Positions 14,719 to 43,667 of a stretch of DNA of 64,000 bases are shown one piece after another. A program made the position numbers and the translations under genes. Position 1 is the stretch's first letter. Each line of letters starts with the position of its first letter. Below the pieces are notes generated by a model that worked only from the letters and a program-made list of their open reading frames with translations, was not told the DNA's origin and searched no databases. Source of the stretch: Alphaproteobacteria bacterium (GTDB lineage Bacteria; Pseudomonadota; Alphaproteobacteria; Sphingomonadales; Emcibacteraceae); NCBI GenBank assembly GCA_020446675.1, contig JAGREE010000005.1, positions 90,637 through 154,636 on the forward strand, written 5' to 3'.

Positions 14719-15214
14719 CTTGATAATTCGTCCTTCCGAAGAAGAGGATATGGAAGCCATACACAAGATTTATGAGCATGAAGTGCTCAATGGCACAGCG
14801 ACATTTGATGAAAGTCCGCCCTCAAAAGAGGCGATGGAAGCAAAAAGGATTGATATTTTGTCGCATGGTTTTCCGCACATTGTGGCTGAAATGGATGGTG
14901 AAGTTGTGGGATACGGATATATATCGTTTTATAGACAGCGATCAGCATATTCCCAGACAGTCGAAAATTCAGTTTACGTAGTGGCAGGTAAGCAAAAATG
15001 CGGAATAGGCTATAAGCTGATGCAGGCTGTTATTGAAGATTGTGAAAGACTGGGGCTTAAAAATATCATTGCCGTCATTGGCGACAGCGGTAATTCGGGC
15101 TCAATTAAATTGCATCAAAAACTGGGTTTTCGAAAAGTTGGAATTTTGACGGATGTCGGGTTTAAATTCGGCCGTTGGCTTGATGTGGTATTGATGCAAA
15201 AAACATTGCGATAA
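14711..15214 (+). CDS. GNAT N-acetyltransferase (phosphinothricin/methionine-sulfoximine acetyltransferase-like)
   Basis: PAT-like sequence (IRPSEEEDMEAIHKIYEHEVLNGTATFDE; CGIGYKLMQAVIE; LHQKLGF). The ATG at 14711 overlaps the nitrilase stop by 8 nt. Confidence 0.82.
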   Translation: MSDLIIRPSEEEDMEAIHKIYEHEVLNGTATFDESPPSKEAMEAKRIDILSHGFPHIVAEMDGEVVGYGYISFYRQRSAYSQTVENSVYVVAGKQKCGIGYKLMQAVIEDCERLGLKNIIAVIGDSGNSGSIKLHQKLGFRKVGILTDVGFKFGRWLDVVLMQKTLR

Positions 15215-15256
15215 AATTGATAAACAAAAAAATAAATAAACTTTGGGAGAGGTTTT

Positions 15257-16549
15257 ATGAATAACAGACGGAATTTTTTAAAATGGACCGGCATTGCCGG
15301 CGCAGCCGGATTGGTAAGTGCCTGTGGGCAAGGTGCAGAGCAGGGAAAAGCTGAAGAGAAAGTAGCTGCGAGCACCGGGAAATTTGACCATCTTCCCAAT
15401 ATGATGGAAGGCGTTGCCCCAATTTCTGTTGCGGAACACAAAGTGCGTGTTGCCAAAGCGCAGGAACTGATGGCCCAGAATGGCATAGAGGCCATATATC
15501 TGGAGGCGACATCAAATCTTTGGTACTTTACCGGTATGCGCTGGGGGCAAAGTGAACGTATGGCGGCCGCCATTATCCCCAAAGAAGGGGAAGTGGCCTA
15601 TGTCTGCCCGATGTTTGAAGTGGAAAGGCTGAAAGAAAGAATAATCCTTGGGGATATAGTCCGTGGCTGGGAAGAACATGAAAGCCCCTATAAACTGGTG
15701 GTATCCATGTTAAAAGATATGGGTATTACATCCGGAAAACTGGGGATAGGGGAACGGACAAGATTTTTTCTGGTCGATGGCATTCGAAAAGAAGCGCCGT
15801 TTCTTGAAATTGTCAGTGCCGACCCTGTTACCGCTGAATGCCGGATTATAAAATCCGCTGATGAAATCAGGCTATTGCAGAGAGCAAATGATATCACCAT
15901 TGCCGCTTATAAAGAAACCGTCAAACATATAGAACCAGGGATGCGGGGATCTGATATTTCGGCCATTTCGCGTCAGGTTCATGCAGCACTTGGGGTCACA
16001 GGCTATCTAGGCACCATGATTGGTGTCGTTTCATCCTCTCCTCATGGTTCCATCGTCGAACCGGTGCTTGAGGAAGGTATGATCGTTCTGATGGATGGCG
16101 GCTGTGATGTTCATAATTATTCATCCGATATCAGCCGTACAATTGTTTACGGTCAATATACAGCGGAACAGGAAGAAGTCTGGAACCTTGAAAAACGGGC
16201 GCAGGCAGCGGGCTTCGCTGCCGCACAACTTGGCGCTCCACAGGAAAATGTTGATATTGCCGCGCGTAAGGTGATTACCGATGCCGGTTACGGTCCTGGC
16301 TATAAAACACCGGGGCTCCCGCACCGGACAGGTCACGGAATTGGACTTGATATGCATGAATGGGGAAATGCGGTGCTTGGCAATAAACGCCCTTTGGCGC
16401 CGGGTATGTGTTTCAGTATTGAACCGACGATTGCCATTCCCGGCAAATTCGGTGTGCGTCTTGAAGATTGCTGCCACATGACAGAAAGTGGCCCGGCATG
16501 GTTTTCAAACCCTTCTGTAGCAATTGATGATCCTTTTGGCGATAATTAA
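15257..16549 (+). CDS. M24-family Xaa-Pro peptidase/creatinase-like hydrolase with a Tat-type lipoprotein signal
   Basis: N-terminal RRNFLKWTGIAGAAGLVSAC, giving a twin-arginine motif plus a lipobox. M24 metal-ligand context (DGGCD..YSSDISRT, HRTGHGIGLDMHE, FSIEP, RLED). Confidence 0.82.
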   Translation: MNNRRNFLKWTGIAGAAGLVSACGQGAEQGKAEEKVAASTGKFDHLPNMMEGVAPISVAEHKVRVAKAQELMAQNGIEAIYLEATSNLWYFTGMRWGQSERMAAAIIPKEGEVAYVCPMFEVERLKERIILGDIVRGWEEHESPYKLVVSMLKDMGITSGKLGIGERTRFFLVDGIRKEAPFLEIVSADPVTAECRIIKSADEIRLLQRANDITIAAYKETVKHIEPGMRGSDISAISRQVHAALGVTGYLGTMIGVVSSSPHGSIVEPVLEEGMIVLMDGGCDVHNYSSDISRTIVYGQYTAEQEEVWNLEKRAQAAGFAAAQLGAPQENVDIAARKVITDAGYGPGYKTPGLPHRTGHGIGLDMHEWGNAVLGNKRPLAPGMCFSIEPTIAIPGKFGVRLEDCCHMTESGPAWFSNPSVAIDDPFGDN

Positions 16550-16550
16550 A

Positions 16551-17840
16551 ATGAAAAGAAAATATCTATTTCTGGCATTCATTGCGTCTCTTTCCTTATC
16601 AGGATGTGATGAGAAATCGGGATCAATAGATCATCAGTTTACGATTGCCATGATCCCGGATACCCAGAATATGGTCGATTATCTGCATCAGAAACAGACA
16701 GGCTTTGCGATTGACAGTGCTGATCTTTATATTGAACAAATGAAATATATTGCTGACAATACTGAAAGCAAGGGTGGTGAAATCGCCTTTGCCACATCGG
16801 TTGGTGATGTCTGGCAGCATTTGGACGTAAAAGTTGATCCGGCCCATTATGATCGTGGACTAAGAAAAGTGCCAATCACACCACGTATCCCGCCGGAGGA
16901 ATTGGTGTCAGGCAGGAATAATTTTGAAATACCGGTTGTAATAAAAGGTTATGATCTACTTGAGGAAACAGCTGTTCCTTTTTCCGTTGCCCCGGGAAAT
17001 CATGACTATACAACAGGATGGATGCATAACCCATATCCGGACGACCCGAACCCGCGTGATCGGATGCGCGCTGAAAATATACTGCCTAATATGCACCTGG
17101 GCGGTTATGATGTTTTTAATGGTGTATTCGGCCCCGAAAGCAAATATTTTAAAGGAAAAAACTGGTATATCAGCAGCTTTCATGGCGGTGTAAACAGTGC
17201 ACAGGTTTTTGAGGCTGGCGGCTATAAATTTCTTCATCTTGCTTTTGAAATGCAGGCGGGAGATGATGTTTTGGCCTGGGCCCAGTCCGTGATTGATGAG
17301 AACCCGGGTCTGCCAACCATTATTTCAACCCATGATTTTTTAAATCCTCGCGGGGAGCGTCTGCCAAGTCCGAGTTATGATCTTGATGCGGTTGATCCGC
17401 TTGCGCATAATAGTGCAGAGGAAATATGGGACGAATTTATCCGCTCAAATGACCAGATTTTCATGGTGCTGAGTGGTCACCAGCTTGGACAGGCGATCAA
17501 AACATCCATAAATGATAAGGGAAATGCCGTATATCAGATTTTGGCGGATTATCAGGGGCGCGGGCAGGCGGCAAACCCGCCTGCTGATCAGGAACAGATA
17601 ACCGGAATTGGTGATGGCTGGCTTAGGTTAATGGAATTTGACACTGCCCCAGCCATTCCGGTGATTAAAGTCAGAACCTATTCAACCTTCTATAAAAAAT
17701 ATTCAAATGAGCTGGCGGAATATGCAAGCTGGTATCGTGACATGGAACAACCGGGAATGACAGATCAGGAATTTCAGGATGCGGATCATTATGATATCAT
17801 CCTGAATGATTTTAAAATAAGGTTCGGCGAGCCAGAATAA
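16551..17840 (+). CDS. Calcineurin-like metallophosphoesterase lipoprotein
   Basis: Lipobox LSLSGC after the ATG at 16551. Motifs MIPDTQN, VGDVWQH, APGNHDY and LSGHQ. Confidence 0.7.
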   Translation: MKRKYLFLAFIASLSLSGCDEKSGSIDHQFTIAMIPDTQNMVDYLHQKQTGFAIDSADLYIEQMKYIADNTESKGGEIAFATSVGDVWQHLDVKVDPAHYDRGLRKVPITPRIPPEELVSGRNNFEIPVVIKGYDLLEETAVPFSVAPGNHDYTTGWMHNPYPDDPNPRDRMRAENILPNMHLGGYDVFNGVFGPESKYFKGKNWYISSFHGGVNSAQVFEAGGYKFLHLAFEMQAGDDVLAWAQSVIDENPGLPTIISTHDFLNPRGERLPSPSYDLDAVDPLAHNSAEEIWDEFIRSNDQIFMVLSGHQLGQAIKTSINDKGNAVYQILADYQGRGQAANPPADQEQITGIGDGWLRLMEFDTAPAIPVIKVRTYSTFYKKYSNELAEYASWYRDMEQPGMTDQEFQDADHYDIILNDFKIRFGEPE

Positions 17841-36041: not shown

Positions 36042-36365
36042 TTATCTATAGATTTCCCTGGTGATAATTACCACAGGTCTATCAATTCGTTGCGGTGCAT
36101 AAGCACGTCTTATGCGACGGATTTTTTTAACCTTCCCGCGGTGCGTTACCTTGGCAAAATGTCTGTGATTGTTGGGAATAACAATCACCGGGACACTGTG
36201 ACGTCCGCCTGTGTAGATGATTTTTCCCGGATGGGTGACTACAACATGTGAATTCCGCTCGCCAGCATATCTATGTGTGCGTTCATGGGCCTGAGTCTGA
36301 ACCGCTAATGTCAGGCTTAATGCTATTGCAGCAATCCATGCTATAATATTTATATTTTTTTTCAT
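36042..36365 (-). CDS. Small secreted His/Arg-rich hypothetical protein
   Basis: AGGAG lies 9 nt upstream of the ATG at 36365. Signal peptide (IIAWIAAIALSLTLAVQTQA). The mature part is rich in H, R and K; no family recognised. Confidence 0.6.
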   Translation of the reverse strand: MKKNINIIAWIAAIALSLTLAVQTQAHERTHRYAGERNSHVVVTHPGKIIYTGGRHSVPVIVIPNNHRHFAKVTHRGKVKKIRRIRRAYAPQRIDRPVVIITREIYR

Positions 36366-36545
36366 CACTGGTCTCCTTTTCTATGTTAATCAACCACTTG
36401 GAAGCCCTTTTCTAATTTCCTTTATAGCCAGTGTGATCTGAACCAATGATGAATTTGCCTGAAATCTGTTGTTCATCTTTTACCTCTTGCGAGCTTTCCT
36501 GCAAAAAGCTAGGCTAACTTAAAAGGGAAGATAAAGGGGAGAAAC

Positions 36546-38675: not shown

Positions 38676-39035
38676 TTACATTGGTGGATTGTTTTTTAGA
38701 TCTGCCGCTTTATCCTTCACGGCATCCACAGCATCTTCACCGGCATCTTTAACATCATCGGCCACTTCGCCGGCCTTGTCCATGGCGTCATCCGCCATTT
38801 CACCGGCTTTATCCATGGCTTCATCAGCCATTTCACCGGCCTTGTCGGCAACTTCATCCGCCTTTTGTTTGGCATCATTCATCATAGCATCGGCAGAGCT
38901 GGCAGTGCTTTCTGCTGTTGAGGCAGCCTTATTTTCCATACTACTGTTTGAATTGTTGTCATCGTTGCCACATGACGCTGTCATAAATACGACTGACGAT
39001 AATAGGATAGAATAAATTGTGTTTTTAGTGTTCAT
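38676..39035 (-). CDS. Acidic repeat lipoprotein (11-residue DKAGE-type repeats)
   Basis: GGAGG lies 9 nt upstream of the ATG. Lipobox VFMTASC. The mature part is D/E/A/K-rich with three 11-aa repeats. Confidence 0.75.
   Translation of the reverse strand: MNTKNTIYSILLSSVVFMTASCGNDDNNSNSSMENKAASTAESTASSADAMMNDAKQKADEVADKAGEMADEAMDKAGEMADDAMDKAGEVADDVKDAGEDAVDAVKDKAADLKNNPPM
38763..38861. repeat. Three tandem 33-nt units inside the lipoprotein gene
   Basis: The units are 38763-38795, 38796-38828 and 38829-38861 (CAYTTCRCCGGCYTTRTC...TCATCNGC). They encode ADxxxDKAGEx. Confidence 0.8.
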
Positions 39036-39135: not shown

Positions 39136-39714
39136 CTATTCATACACCAGTTTCCCGTTCTTAACCTTAACTTTTATTTTGGGTATTTTCTCACAGGCCT
39201 GAATAGCTTTTTTAAGTTCGAATAATACATTATTGATGTTATTCGATTGCACAGCAGAAAATAAGGCAATATTCAGGAAGGCAGTAGCAGGCTCAGTTTC
39301 TTCATCATTTCCATAAGTTAAAATACAAGGCACACCATTTTTCATTTGTTGGATTATAAATTTAGCCAGTTTCTTATTATTTTCTATTTTCTTTTTATCA
39401 AGTATAGTAAAACGAAAACCTATTCTTCCAGCAAAAGGTGGGGGAAAATTTTCATCTGCAAATTCAAGAAGAACACCCATTTTGTCGGGACGCCAGCTGT
39501 CATCAAGATCCGGTAAATTGCGCCAGGCGCAAAACCATTTTTGGCAAACATTTGGCCGTGAATTATATATTGAGCAACCACCATTCTTCATTAAGTTTGA
39601 ACATGTGAAATTCGGAGGTTTTACAAATTCAGTGCTGTTGATTGAAAGGATTGTACAGCAAACTGTACATTCACCACATTGACGGTCACTTACGAGATAT
39701 ACTTGCGCCGCCAT
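39136..39714 (-). CDS. YkgJ-family (CxxCxxCC, UPF0153) putative zinc/iron-sulfur protein
   Basis: N-terminal CGECTVCC followed by GGCSIYNSRPNVCQKWFC. It is divergent from the paralogue array and lies in the same AT-rich block. Confidence 0.72.
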   Translation of the reverse strand: MAAQVYLVSDRQCGECTVCCTILSINSTEFVKPPNFTCSNLMKNGGCSIYNSRPNVCQKWFCAWRNLPDLDDSWRPDKMGVLLEFADENFPPPFAGRIGFRFTILDKKKIENNKKLAKFIIQQMKNGVPCILTYGNDEETEPATAFLNIALFSAVQSNNINNVLFELKKAIQACEKIPKIKVKVKNGKLVYE

Positions 39715-39883
39715 TGTTTCAAAACATCCTCAACTCAAATCTGATTGACGAACAAATTCTATATATTGAGCGGGCTTTTGTAAATATCATAAAAATTATT
39801 TCCCGTTAGTATTTTATTGAAGATTTTACTTTAGTTTAGATTACGTCAACAAGTCTTATAGTAAAATGAGTTAGGCAATTTTA

Positions 39884-41050
39884 ATGAAATTATTAAAAAC
39901 AGAAATTTCTGAAGTATCTGAAGATCGAAAACGTATAACAGGTTTTGTAGAATATAATGATGGTTATATTGATGAATACTGGTACGAATATCCTGCTCAT
40001 TTTGATATTACTGATTCTGGAAACCCATGGCTTGCGGCACTTCTTCCTATGGCTGCAACGATAAATGAAGACCTTGAAATATCTTTGCCTATTGATCAAA
40101 GGCTATTGGATGGCGCAAACGATATCATGAGGTTCTGGCATTCCTGGGATAAGAGTACATATATAGTAAAAATAAACGCAGAAAACATTGCAAATGTAGG
40201 AGATAATATTTCAAAAGATGCAGCTTCATTTTTTTCATCCGGCGTTGACGCTTTTTATACGGCATATAACAAACCCAGAGCCAATTATAAAATTCTCATT
40301 CATGGATTTGATCTTTCAATAAATAAAGAAACAGAATTTGAAACCCATTTAAAACGAATTTCAGATGTCGTTAAAAATCTGGGTGAGGAACTTGTTTTCG
40401 TTAAAACAAATATCAGACATACAAGATGGAAGCAAACCAGATGGCAGGCTATTTCACACGGTGCTGCACTTGCCTCAATTGGTTTATTATTTGAAAAGCA
40501 TTTTTCGGAAATATTTATACCCTCAAGTATGGGGGATTATTCGGATTTATATTGTTGGGGGTCTCATCCATTAACCGATCCCTTATATTCAACAAGTAAA
40601 ACAAATATTATCACTGATGGAGACGGTTTAAGTCGGCTAGATAAAATTAAGTTTCTGGCAGATTACGATTATGCCTTAAAGCACCTTCATGTTTGTATTC
40701 GTGGCAAGGATGGAACTGGTCAGGATGAAGTTAATTGCTCGCATTGTGAAAAATGTTATCGAACAATGATCGCGCTTGAACTCGCCAACTGTCTTGAGAA
40801 ATGTGACTTGTTTGATGTGGATAAATATAATTATGAAGAGATTCCTTATATGTTTGTAACTGATGCTTTTACGGCACCTGAGTACCATGAGATGGCTGAA
40901 GAGGCATTGATGCAGAATAAGCTGGAGCTTGCATCGGCAATCTATAAAGCAATAAGGCGTTCAAAACTGATTATCAGGCTTGGGTTTTTAAAGAAAGTTC
41001 CTTTTTTATGGTACATTCCCCATAAGATGATGGAAAATTCCATATATTAA
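39884..41050 (+). CDS. Uncharacterised 388-aa protein, paralogue 1 of 3 (possible PP-loop/QueC-like fold)
   Basis: Intact ORF that aligns without indels to the ORFs at 41126 and 42401. Invariant SSGVDA and C-x13-C-x2-C-x2-C motifs. Conservation with synonymous changes argues for a real gene. Confidence 0.85.
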   Translation: MKLLKTEISEVSEDRKRITGFVEYNDGYIDEYWYEYPAHFDITDSGNPWLAALLPMAATINEDLEISLPIDQRLLDGANDIMRFWHSWDKSTYIVKINAENIANVGDNISKDAASFFSSGVDAFYTAYNKPRANYKILIHGFDLSINKETEFETHLKRISDVVKNLGEELVFVKTNIRHTRWKQTRWQAISHGAALASIGLLFEKHFSEIFIPSSMGDYSDLYCWGSHPLTDPLYSTSKTNIITDGDGLSRLDKIKFLADYDYALKHLHVCIRGKDGTGQDEVNCSHCEKCYRTMIALELANCLEKCDLFDVDKYNYEEIPYMFVTDAFTAPEYHEMAEEALMQNKLELASAIYKAIRRSKLIIRLGFLKKVPFLWYIPHKMMENSIY

Positions 41051-41125
41051 TCTGGATATTAAAATGACCGTCATAAATTTAATTATAAACTTTGATTTAA
41101 ATAATAAAGTACAAGGAATGTCAGA

Positions 41126-42292
41126 ATGGAGTTGATAAGAACCGAAATTTCTGATGTTTCAGCGGATGTAAAGCGCATAACCGGTTTTGTCAGATATAAT
41201 GATGGAAATATAGATGAATATTGGTACGAATATCCATCTCATTTTGAAATTTCCGATACGGGTAACCCATGGCTTGCAGCCTTGCTGCCTATGGCAGCAA
41301 CTATTAACGAAGATCTGATAATATCCCTACCGTTGGATCAAAGACTAATCGATGGTGCCGAGAATATTTTAAGATTTTGGAATGCCTACGATGTAGGCAC
41401 ATCAATAATTTCAATTATACCGTCCGGTGGAGTATGCGTTTTAGATAATTCACCGAAAGATTCAGCAGCATTTTTCTCGTCCGGGGTTGATGCTTTTTAC
41501 ACTGCCTATAATAAACCCAGAGCAAAATATCAAATACTTATTCACGGCTTTGATCTGTCCATTGATAAGAGGGCAGAATTTGAACGACACCTAACGAGAA
41601 TATCCAAAATCAGTAAACAGATGGGTAAAGAACTTGTATCTGTTAGAACAAATATCCGGCAAACCCAGTGGAAGAAAACGCGTTGGCAGGTGGTATCACA
41701 TGGTGCAGCTCTTGCATCGATCGGACTATTATTTGAAAAATATTTCAGAGAAATATTTATTCCATCCAGTTTGAAGAATTTTAGAGATACTTACTGTTGG
41801 GGATCACATCCGGTGACCGACCCATTATTTTCAACAAGTAAATCAAATATAATCACAGATGGTGATGGCCTTAGTCGTTATGAGAAGGTTCAATTTATCA
41901 GCAATCATCAATTGGCTCTGGATAATCTCCATGTCTGTATTCGTGGACGTGATGGATCCGGTCAGGATGAAATAAATTGTTCACATTGTGAAAAATGCTA
42001 TCGAACGATGATTGCATTGGATTTGATAGGGGTACTGGAAAAAGCCAAACTTTTCGATTTAAGTAAGTATAATTATGATGAAATTAGCATGATTTTTCCT
42101 TCCAATGAATCTACTACAGGAAATTACGAAAAATTTATAAAAATTGCAGAGGAAAAAAACAGGCCTGAGATAGCAAATAATATTCGAAAATGTATTAAGC
42201 GATCCAAACTAATAAATTTATTATCTCCATTGGATAAAGTGCCTTTATTGTGGCGCATTCCATACAAAATGATGAATAATTCCATAGATTAA
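41126..42292 (+). CDS. Uncharacterised 388-aa protein, paralogue 2 of 3
   Basis: Same length and motif set as paralogue 1. AAGGA lies about 9 nt upstream of the ATG. It is the most divergent copy. Confidence 0.85.
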   Translation: MELIRTEISDVSADVKRITGFVRYNDGNIDEYWYEYPSHFEISDTGNPWLAALLPMAATINEDLIISLPLDQRLIDGAENILRFWNAYDVGTSIISIIPSGGVCVLDNSPKDSAAFFSSGVDAFYTAYNKPRAKYQILIHGFDLSIDKRAEFERHLTRISKISKQMGKELVSVRTNIRQTQWKKTRWQVVSHGAALASIGLLFEKYFREIFIPSSLKNFRDTYCWGSHPVTDPLFSTSKSNIITDGDGLSRYEKVQFISNHQLALDNLHVCIRGRDGSGQDEINCSHCEKCYRTMIALDLIGVLEKAKLFDLSKYNYDEISMIFPSNESTTGNYEKFIKIAEEKNRPEIANNIRKCIKRSKLINLLSPLDKVPLLWRIPYKMMNNSID

Positions 42293-42400
42293 TTAGTTGT
42301 ATTGAAATGCTGGAAAAATTTTAAAATTAATATTAAGTTAAATCTTATCCCAATAATTTTATCTAAAGTTATATAGAGAATTTTTTAAAAGAAATTTAAA

Positions 42401-43567
42401 ATGGAATTAATTAAAACCGAAATAGCAAATATATCAGAAGGGGTCAAACGTATCACCGGTTTTGTTAGATATGATGATGGTTATATTGATGAATACTGGT
42501 ACGAATATCCGGCCAATTTTGAAATTTCCAACACGGGCAATCCCTGGCTGGTCGCTTTACTTCCCATGGCGTCCACAATAAATGAAGATTTGGTAATTTC
42601 GCTTCCTGTGGATCAACGTCTTGTTGATGGAGCAAATAATATCCAGAGATTTTGGTCCGACTGGAAAATGGGAACGAATATTATAAAAATAAAAGCGGAT
42701 AATATTGCCAAAGTAAACAAAACACTACCTGATAATTCAGCATCGTTTTTTTCTTCGGGCGTTGATGCATTCTTTACCGCCTATAATAAACCAAGAGCAA
42801 AATATAAAATTCTTATTCACGGTTTTGATCTTTCAATATCTAAATCGGAAGAATTTCAGATGCATAGTGAGCGCATATCAAGAGTGGTTAAGGAACTTGG
42901 GCAGGACATTGTCATTGTAAGGACCAATATTCGCCAAACACGATGGGAGAAAACCAGGTGGCAGGCAATTTCTCATGGTGCTGCCTTGGCATCGATAGGG
43001 CTGTTGTTTGAAAATTATTTTGCTGAAATTTTTATCCCATCGAGTGTAAGCACATATTATCAGGTCGGTTGTTGGGGGTCACATCCTGTTACCGATCCGC
43101 TTTTTTCGACAAGCAGAACAAGTTTTATTGATGATGGTGATGGCTTAAACCGATTAGATAAAGTAAAATTTTTGGCAAATTATGATATTGCATTGAAAAA
43201 TCTTCATGTTTGTATTCGTGGTAAAGATGGAACTGGTCAGGATGAGGTTAACTGTTCCCACTGCGAAAAATGTTATCGTACAATGATCGCTTTGGATCTG
43301 GCAGGGTGTCTGGATAAATGCGTTCTATTTGATAAAGAAAAATATAACTATTCTGAAATACCCAATATTTATATAAATGATGTTGGTGAGAATCCGGAAT
43401 ACGAACCAATGGCCAAAGAAGCTTTGCGTCAGAATAATCATGAACTTGCTGCCGCTATTTACAAGGCTATTAGGCGCTCAAAATTGCTTATCAAATTAAA
43501 ACCGTTGGAAAAAATGCCTTTATTATGGCGGATACCATACAATATGCAGGAAAATTCGATTTATTGA
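42401..43567 (+). CDS. Uncharacterised 388-aa protein, paralogue 3 of 3
   Basis: Same length and motif set. It is closest to paralogue 1, for example in the shared C-terminal AIYKAIRRSKL. Confidence 0.85.
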   Translation: MELIKTEIANISEGVKRITGFVRYDDGYIDEYWYEYPANFEISNTGNPWLVALLPMASTINEDLVISLPVDQRLVDGANNIQRFWSDWKMGTNIIKIKADNIAKVNKTLPDNSASFFSSGVDAFFTAYNKPRAKYKILIHGFDLSISKSEEFQMHSERISRVVKELGQDIVIVRTNIRQTRWEKTRWQAISHGAALASIGLLFENYFAEIFIPSSVSTYYQVGCWGSHPVTDPLFSTSRTSFIDDGDGLNRLDKVKFLANYDIALKNLHVCIRGKDGTGQDEVNCSHCEKCYRTMIALDLAGCLDKCVLFDKEKYNYSEIPNIYINDVGENPEYEPMAKEALRQNNHELAAAIYKAIRRSKLLIKLKPLEKMPLLWRIPYNMQENSIY

Positions 43568-43570
43568 TGA

Positions 43571-43604
43571 GGTTCAGATAAATTGCTTTGGTTTATCTGA
43601 AACC
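43571..43604 (+). terminator. Hairpin directly after the third paralogue
   Basis: TTCAGATAAA-9 nt-TTTATCTGAA is a perfect 10-bp stem starting 4 nt after the stop. There is no T-run, so its terminator function is uncertain. Confidence 0.35.
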
Positions 43605-43667
43605 ATGCTACGTCGCGGCCTAATTTTCAATGTTGATCAGATATGTATGAATTCACAACTACACACA

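Follow-up and report, generated by a model that had tools for sequence, protein, structure and literature searches.

Enzymes built on the PP-loop, among them QueC, asparagine synthetase and the N-acetyl sugar amidotransferases (NASAT) such as WbpG, share a chemistry of ATP binding, substrate adenylation and pyrophosphate release, and the QueC scaffold has so far been tied to the deazaguanines of tRNA and DNA, to phage defense and to amidotransferases of the WbpG type. The subject of this work is an array of three tandem genes, each encoding 388 amino acids (aa), at positions 39884-43567 of a 64,000-nucleotide stretch of an Emcibacteraceae genome (contig JAGREE010000005.1 of assembly GCA_020446675.1, positions 90,637 to 154,636), referred to here as the window, whose products appear to carry a remote version of this scaffold. 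In QueC itself, the motifs YxQxHxxE, VPxRN, and YPDC have been experimentally defined, and a zinc knuckle with cysteines in the order C...CxxCxxC follows the Rossmann core (PMC13329287). The NASAT enzymes are dimeric PP-loop proteins of approximately 380–400 aa with a zinc-binding tetracysteine site, encoded in O-antigen and lipopolysaccharide clusters, where their ATP-dependent reaction alters a substituent of a sugar (PMC10607449; PMC13329287). In LpNASAT, the cysteine motif (C44/47/79/82) precedes the PP-loop (122-127) (PMC10607449). The reading of the array that is favored here, and to which roughly even weight is given, is that its genes are transcribed together, stem from ancient duplications and all still function, as paralogues within a single large and uncharacterized enzyme family with glycan-linked PP-loop chemistry.

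The three open reading frames (ORFs) lie on the forward strand at 39884-41050 (copy 1), 41126-42292 (copy 2), and 42401-43567 (copy 3), and ORF calls and MAFFT alignment of their products (388 columns, no gaps) bear out the length-locked, indel-free arrangement described in an earlier note made from the DNA letters. Protein identity, put by eye at roughly 60–70% in that note, is 66% between copies 1 and 2, 71% between copies 1 and 3, which are indeed the closest pair, and 65% between copies 2 and 3, with nucleotide identities of 66–70%. The ten invariant blocks quoted in the note all recur, position for position, in each copy, and its three codon strings for CSHCEKCYRT are exact. The synonymous difference among copies (pS) is saturated at 0.73–0.74, with nonsynonymous divergence (dN) of 0.21–0.29 and a nonsynonymous to synonymous ratio (dN/dS) of 0.07–0.09. 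Residues conserved in the family, defined as those kept in at least 85% of its members, are essentially all retained, with one to three conservative changes per copy (only V70L and W88Y in copy 2, and R346N alone in copy 3). Judged from their coding sequences, the three copies are hence old duplicates under strong purifying selection, as the note had proposed, and the low dN/dS together with the at most three conservative deviations per copy suggests that all of them are functional. Recent amplification was rejected because synonymous sites are saturated.

The DNA similarity among copies runs from 1 nucleotide (nt) before each ATG to approximately 4 nt past each stop codon, and the spacers are therefore not part of the repeat unit. 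On the forward strand, the first spacer (41051-41125; 75 nt, GC content 0.23) bears the string AAGGAA upstream of the copy 2 ATG, and the second (42293-42400; 108 nt, GC 0.16) a weak promoter-like match at 42374-42402 (9/12 positions). No terminator-like site was found in either spacer, and both appear unstructured, folding no better than shuffled sequences (z of +0.26 and +1.30, respectively). The only significant hairpin of the array region comes after copy 3, where an inverted repeat at 43571-43605 (−14.2 kcal/mol, z −3.1, with 1 of 200 shuffles folding equally well) lies between copy 3 and the convergent galK gene and would act as a bidirectional terminator closing the three-gene unit. Because the spacers lack terminators and structure and the hairpin occurs past copy 3 alone, the layout fits the co-transcription put forward in the earlier note, and the three genes would form a single transcription unit whose end falls in the gap before galK. 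Upstream of copy 1, the AT-rich divergent intergenic region (39715-39883; 169 nt) contains promoter-like matches on both strands (39835-39862 on the forward and 39784-39756 on the reverse strand) that are no commoner than in shuffled sequences. A scan of the array and its leader against Rfam revealed no riboswitch, including preQ1, or other Rfam element. The array genes have a GC content of 0.356–0.374, against 0.445 for the window and 0.41–0.50 for flanking genes.

The structural placement of the family derives from an AlphaFold model of copy 1, computed with an alignment of 120 sequences (predicted local distance difference test, pLDDT, 94.6; predicted template modeling score, pTM, 0.92). 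The model comprises a family-specific N-terminal α/β domain (residues 1 to ~105) with a conserved GNPWLxxLLPxA motif, a QueC-like, Rossmann-like PP-loop core (~106-300; pLDDT 90.3 when modeled separately), and a C-terminal helical domain of approximately 88 aa (301-388). A Foldseek search against predicted viral structures returned QueC as the top match (E 2.8e-4, probability 1.0, template modeling score, TM, to target up to 0.61), with ThiI and an “adenine alpha hydrolase” next in the list. The whole chain gave no clean match against the PDB. A search with the core alone brought a modest improvement: the sensible PDB matches were all PP-loop enzymes, namely TrmU/MnmA (probability 0.99), Cap9 (probability 0.94, TM 0.50/0.55), YcfA, GMP synthetase, TtuA, LarE, and TilS, and Cap9 provided the best global superposition among solved structures.

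Two sequence motifs coincide with this fold. The hexapeptide SSGVDA (copy 1 residues 118-123), encoded on the forward strand at 40235-40252, 41477-41494, and 42752-42769 in copies 1, 2, and 3, is located in the model where strand 113-116 gives way to helix 121-129, the first such junction within the core, as expected for a PP-loop, and its G120 and D122 are invariant. The loop context in the three copies is FFSSGVDAF; the consensus of the wider family, FFSGGVDSFFT, contains the canonical PP-loop SGGxDS, and SGG[VI]DS is found in 68 of 105 family members. The SSGVDA variant is fixed across the Kordiimonadales clade and, among the members compared, occurs only there. The second motif, C271-x13-C285-x2-C288-x2-C291 (copy 1 numbering), is a putative zinc site encoded on the forward strand at 40694-40756, 41936-41998, and 43211-43273. 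Its four cysteines are 100% invariant in the 105 diverse members, follow the PP-loop near the end of the core, in the same order as in QueC, and are aligned onto the QueC zinc-site cysteines by both Pfam (in relatives) and hhalign. Further family invariants are G141, D143, N176 (within T175-N176), R251, K254, and N284. On the strength of the predicted models, the core is concluded to belong, as a remote and QueC-like member, to the superfamily of PP-loop ATP pyrophosphatases (adenine-nucleotide α-hydrolases), within which QueC and Cap9 are nearest to it. Pfam, NCBIfam, PADLOC, and PHROGs yielded nothing significant for the three copies, and searches of PDB sequences with profiles of 3 and 120 sequences yielded only noise (Bak, zinc fingers). 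The description of the proteins as an unrecognized family thus stands for curated models, none of which names the protein or provides a confident full-length match to a well-characterized family, but not for the fold, given the QueC-like PP-loop core and the tetracysteine motif.

The homologues of the three copies (abbreviated FAM in gene orders; L and P numbers denote loci or contigs and proteins, respectively) make up a large family. An exhaustive profile search recovered 9,297 cluster representatives at E ≤ 1e-3 and, with the cutoff tightened to E ≤ 1e-30, still 4,341, and a scan of reference genomes located at least 532 loci in the Gemmatimonadota, Acidobacteriota, Betaproteobacteria and Alphaproteobacteria, Omnitrophota, Chloroflexota, Planctomycetota, and Verrucomicrobiota, and in the archaeon Nitrosotalea. 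Their source names are almost always “hypothetical protein.” To survey genomic context, ORFs were called in 83 non-redundant loci, neighbors were clustered and the clusters were checked with Pfam. Recurrent neighbors include Wzt-type ABC ATPases, Wzm-type ABC-2 permeases, polysaccharide pyruvyl transferases (PyrT; PF04230), GT2 and GT4 glycosyltransferases, asparagine-synthase-like proteins, DegT aminotransferases, and Wzx flippases, and a polysaccharide-assembly gene lies within 5 kb of the family gene in 50 of the 83 loci. Direct same-strand neighbors are a pyruvyl transferase in 13 loci, an asparagine-synthase-like gene in 8, and Wzt in 16, a count that may be inflated, as the hidden Markov model used for Wzt describes ABC ATPases in general. 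Genes are typically arranged as Wzm-FAM-Wzt, Wzm-FAM-PyrT-GT2, and Wzt-FAM-FAM-PyrT-GT2.

The association with pyruvyl transferases extends to plasmids annotated independently in RefSeq with the Prokaryotic Genome Annotation Pipeline, where a “polysaccharide pyruvyl transferase family protein” is followed by the family member D3093_RS27955 on p3 of Azospirillum argentinense, and a PyrT-FAM pair, with PCC7424_RS27560 as the family member, is embedded in a glycosyltransferase and sulfotransferase cluster of Gloeothece PCC 7424. It also extends to gene fusions, which, as metagenomic gene calls, may include read-through artifacts: P0247 (1,259 aa) has the order FAM-pyruvyl transferase-FAM, P0142 (655 aa) joins a family domain to an S-adenosylmethionine-dependent methyltransferase, and P0121 (719 aa) and P0207 (799 aa) are FAM-FAM doubles that keep the PP-loop and the cysteine motif in both halves. 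A Colwellia homologue resides inside an exopolysaccharide/O-antigen cluster. In Massilia (L004/L005, 7525-12577), a single homologue with 43% identity is carried as cargo between a prophage integrase and a holin/lysozyme cassette, a position typical of lysogenic-conversion genes, including modifiers of surface glycans, and one that is consistent with lysogenic conversion of the surface glycan. On the other side of the same integrase, L005 carries a defense island (GAPS4 pair, mSLOG/DUF4326, DUF488). A tblastn search of 50,697 phage records detected no family member.

In the mechanism proposed for the family, ATP would be bound and a carboxyl or carbonyl oxygen of the substrate adenylated with release of pyrophosphate, as in other PP-loop enzymes, and the activated carbon would then be attacked by ammonia, an amine or sulfur, displacing AMP. 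Going by the neighborhoods seen elsewhere, the substrate in most lineages would be a sugar-linked carboxylate on a surface-polysaccharide precursor, and the most plausible one would be the carboxyl group of a pyruvate ketal that the neighboring pyruvyl transferase has put in place, because the family both adjoins and is fused with such enzymes. The three copies of the array would share this chemistry and most likely differ in substrate or partner, or else assemble as mixed dimers, since they have a common core and diverge mainly at the 86-115 linker and at a helical patch spanning residues 318-339. Identity among paralogues is 71–75% in the core, 48–62% in the C-terminal domain, and 30–40% in the linker, and only 1 of 20 positions is identical across the three copies at residues 321-340. 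The sites fixed differently between the orthologue groups of copies 1 and 3 cluster at residues 318-339, with densities per 100 residues of 10.2 in the C-terminal domain vs 2.9 in the N-terminal domain. A bolder proposal, which we regard as unlikely, would see in the family a new class of glycan-tailoring enzymes that adenylate a pyruvate-ketal, or other sugar-borne, carboxylate and convert it to an amide or a QueC-style nitrile, acting as a dimer of paralogues, as the FAM-PyrT-FAM fusion suggests; the Emcibacteraceae array, with its fixed SSGVDA and lack of glycan neighbors, would then be a derived three-subunit version working on a non-glycan carboxylate.

Tandem duplication is a recurrent trait of the family. 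Among approximately 90 loci, 55 have one copy, 27 have two, 4 have three, and 4 have four or five, and tandem copies are nearly always adjacent and on the same strand. The triple array is thus one case of a widespread habit, and the idea that it is special to the window does not hold, with ~35 of the ~90 loci, across phyla, carrying 2–5 tandem copies. Likewise, its designation as an undescribed system went too far, as all the copies belong, as paralogues, to one enzyme family and the search for a dedicated partner gene turned up none. In distant phyla, a tandem copy resembles its partner more than any outside sequence, which points to repeated independent duplications. Loci L058 and L087 are 82–84% identical copy for copy, with 52–56% identity between tandem partners. 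The largest arrays of the family are those of an Anaerolineaceae metagenome-assembled genome (MAG), where a run of at least five copies precedes a pyruvyl transferase (L042, 56-5485), and of a Casimicrobiaceae MAG, with four copies and a DegT gene ahead of them (L047, 8163-13183).

Several observations weigh against the favored reading. Approximately 40% of family loci have no glycan neighbor at all, and the association measured elsewhere includes the possibly overcounted Wzt genes. In the 64-kb window there is no pyruvyl transferase, Wzm/Wzt, glycosyltransferase, DegT, asparagine-synthase-like or Wzx gene, and relatives in the same order are also found outside glycan loci; in the Emcibacteraceae genome, the array lies apart from any glycan locus, and its local function is put forward by analogy only. 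The SSGVDA loop matches the SGGxDS signature at four of six positions, and since the two departures fall within the signature, the activity of the clade that bears it may be altered. The matches to solved structures are weak, none reaching E ≤ 1e-3 and the best TM being ~0.5, and the relation to solved PP-loop enzymes, drawn as it is from predicted models, would be a remote one. The hhalign comparison with the single E. coli QueC sequence has a probability of 5%, with only the alignment of the cysteine motif being informative. For the whole family, lastly, we infer ATP use, zinc binding, and substrate alike.

The strongest competitor, plausible though less likely, is an obligate hetero-oligomer in which copies 1 to 3 are distinct subunits of mixed dimers or of a higher oligomer, instead of independent isoenzymes. 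The recurrence of same-strand tandem paralogues in ~35 of ~90 loci, the preservation of positional orthologues between genomes (82–84% between L058 and L087 vs 52–56% to their own partners), and the fusions P0121, P0207, and P0247, which keep both sets of active-site motifs, are all in line with it, as are the dimeric nature of QueC-type and NASAT-type PP-loop enzymes (PMC10607449) and the concentration of paralogue divergence in two surface-type segments. An obligate assembly, however, fits poorly with the 55 single-copy loci and with a copy number that, at this very site and within one order, takes values of zero, at least one, two, and three, copy 2 being dispensable in the two-copy relatives. 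Furthermore, no copy displays the loss of catalytic residues that usually marks a partner subunit without catalytic activity, and the duplications are independent in different phyla. The possibility that the cysteines hold an Fe-S cluster instead of zinc, and that the adenylated substrate is thiolated as in TtuA, LarE, or MnmA, with the neighboring 192-aa protein discussed below perhaps supplying electrons or sulfur, is quite unlikely. TrmU/MnmA, TtuA, and LarE do figure among the best PDB matches, and a CxxCxxCC protein is encoded next to the array in the same AT-rich island, but the order and spacing of C...CxxCxxC after the Rossmann core resemble those of the QueC zinc knuckle (PMC13329287), TtuA and the non-sacrificial LarE use three cysteines, the 192-aa gene is present without a family member in L094 and L095, and the usual neighbors of the family are pyruvyl transferases and asparagine-synthase-like amidotransferases, not sulfur-relay genes.

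An anti-phage function, with the proteins acting as Cap9/QatC-like effectors that conjugate a nucleobase or other moiety to protein and with an arms race accounting for the three copies, appears very unlikely. The superposition with Cap9, the position of the Massilia homologue as cargo between integrase and lysis cassette and next to a defense island, and the AT-rich array itself, variable in copy number and evolving faster than its flanks (88% vs 92–96%), can be read in its favor. Against these stand the absence of any PADLOC match and of QatA/B/D, CD-NTase or Cap10/TGT partners in the window or in the loci examined, a dN/dS of 0.07–0.09 that carries no diversifying signal, the location of half of the family inside glycan-assembly operons and the absence of members from the 50,697 phage records; the prophage location, moreover, is equally expected for O-antigen-converting genes. 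Hardly credible, finally, is a reading of the copies as true queuosine/7-deazaguanine enzymes, that is, QueC isozymes, or as decaying relics. One Joint Genome Institute record names a homologue QueC, and weak matches to PF06508 and to the “QueC-like” phrog_1550 exist that involve only the cysteine motif. Yet the copies do not match PF06508, for which even the best relative falls short of the cutoff, the QueC substrate motifs are absent, approximately 110 extra residues precede the core and 90 follow it, and there is neither a preQ1 or other riboswitch nor a queD or queE neighbor. Relics are contradicted by intact frames, dN/dS below 0.1, and orthologues with 88% identity in other genera.

Comparison with related genomes indicates how the array has changed within its clade. 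Two metagenome contigs (L008 and L009) are nucleotide-identical to the window, and related Emcibacteraceae/Kordiimonadaceae MAGs have two copies at the syntenic site. Copies 1 and 3 both have orthologues in these two-copy relatives, at identities of 88% and of 79–81%: copy 1 corresponds to the first gene of their arrays (88%) and copy 3 to the second (88% to copy 2 of L001 and 81% to copy 2 of L002). Copy 2, the most divergent paralogue, has no orthologue in them, and its identity to all other copies, also to those in L001 and L002, is 64–66%. Another relative, L013, has at least one copy at a contig end, and two more have none at the syntenic site. Relative to the nearest MAG, identity is 92–96% for flanking genes, 88% for the family copies, and 81% for the 192-aa neighbor, and the difference between 88% and 92–96% suggests that the array is accessory and evolves faster than its surroundings.

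The 192-aa cysteine-rich protein (YkgJ-like, with CxxCxxCC and CGECTVCC) is encoded divergently from the array on the reverse strand (39136-39714; GC 0.364), in the same AT-rich island. It has a below-threshold match to PF03692 (CxxCxxCC) and a match to phrog_9155, of unknown function (E 1.3e-12), and only approximately 20 protein clusters of its kind are known, nearly all from the Emcibacteraceae/Kordiimonadales. In relatives, the gene is syntenic with the array, and it travels with a block of PhyH dioxygenase and permease genes even where the family is absent. Its role as a dedicated partner was rejected in view of homologues at the same syntenic site without a family gene in L094 and L095. 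Also rejected was a connection with the PhyH dioxygenase and amino-acid permease genes upstream, or with galK/galT, their proximity being clade-specific synteny that does not recur near the family elsewhere. The two-copy relatives have a cluster of approximately 8 kb between the array and galK (L001, 12409-20333; L002, 12432-20363), containing two nucleoside hydrolases, a ribose-type ABC transporter, a PfkB kinase, and a LacI regulator. No such insert separates the array from galK in the window (43568-43667), where the two abut directly, and their junction is hence taken to be an indel hot spot.

Other genes of this region were noted in passing. A 119-aa protein with a lipoprotein-like signal (ending in MTASC) is encoded on the reverse strand at 38676-39035. 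It contains four tandem 33-nt repeats (38722-38882) that specify 11-aa units of the DKAGEMADEAM type, and shares only 70% identity with the orthologue of the nearest relative, vs 92–96% for flanking genes. Further away, a 108-aa ORF on the reverse strand (36042-36368) has an N-terminal signal-like segment and a basic body rich in histidine and arginine, is 87% identical in relatives and has no family match. In the Emcibacteraceae MAG contig L012, the single family copy is preceded by a Gfo/Idh/MocA oxidoreductase and followed by a CcrM-like methylase, and tandem Asparaginase_2 paralogues of 372 and 388 aa (15122-17574) lie ~4 kb downstream of it.

If the glycan-linked PP-loop reading is correct, thousands of “hypothetical proteins” in O-antigen, capsule, and exopolysaccharide loci of many phyla could be assigned a fold, a predicted cofactor and a reaction open to testing, namely the ATP-dependent modification of a pyruvylated or acidic sugar, and the QueC scaffold would gain a further large branch. 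The recurrent tandem paralogues and fused doubles would provide a tractable case of the passage from homodimeric enzymes to paralogous heteromers. For the genome analyzed here the gain is modest, in that the three genes could be annotated as QueC-like PP-loop ATPase family proteins.

In comparison with described systems, the family resembles QueC, Cap9, and QatC in its predicted Rossmann-like core, which has the PP-loop where the first strand meets the first helix and a C...CxxCxxC knuckle in the same order later on, and in its expected chemistry, an ATP-dependent adenylation of a carboxylate followed by nitrogen transfer. It differs from QueC in the spacing after the first cysteine (x13 vs x8), and in having extra N-terminal (~105 aa) and C-terminal helical (~88 aa) domains; and its neighbors are glycan genes, as opposed to queD/queE, Qat genes or genes of the cyclic oligonucleotide-based anti-phage signaling system (CBASS). 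None of the three copies matches PF06508 (QueC) at E ≤ 1, the best relative, P0079, reaches 18.3 bits vs a cutoff of 22 over model positions 171-207 only, and the QueC motifs YxQxHxxE, VPxRN, and YPDC are all missing from the conserved positions of the family. QueC proper was rejected on these grounds, with the Pfam threshold missed and the motifs absent. A PADLOC search for QatABCD and type IV CBASS returned only a DpdF match (E 0.052), and no QatA/B/D, CD-NTase or Cap10/TGT partner was found in the window or in the loci of relatives examined.

Among uncharacterized domains, DUF6395 (PF19932) is matched weakly and below threshold by 16 of 66 diverse members, over the cysteine motif and the helices that follow, and above threshold by P0079 (31.4 bits vs 25). 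It is not matched by the three window copies, and its model spans only ~120 C-terminal residues. By sequence, the family is related to DUF6395, itself uncharacterized, and the window proteins are not members of it by the curated criterion. No paper on DUF6395 was found in the literature searched, and searches on DUF6395, on QueC-like proteins with polysaccharides, and on the PP-loop with pyruvyl transferases found nothing on the family. Asparagine-synthetase-type amidotransferases (WbpS-like) are likewise PP-loop enzymes that amidate sugar carboxylates in glycan loci, but they belong to PF00733, are larger and possess an N-terminal glutaminase domain; the family lacks such a domain and would therefore depend on free ammonia, on an amine or on help from a partner protein.

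The closest functional analogue of the family is provided by the NASAT enzymes (WbuX, WbpG, PseA; TIGR03573; PDB 8WEX). Assignment to the WbuX/WbpG type was rejected, because neither the window copies nor the 66 diverse members have an NCBIfam match (TIGR03573 included) and because the cysteine motif of the family follows the core, the reverse of the order in LpNASAT. The family also lacks HisH/HisF-like WbuY/WbuZ partners, its usual partner being a pyruvyl transferase. The fold is a familiar one, and we infer that the family is an uncharacterized, large QueC-like branch of a known superfamily that mostly serves the modification of polysaccharides.

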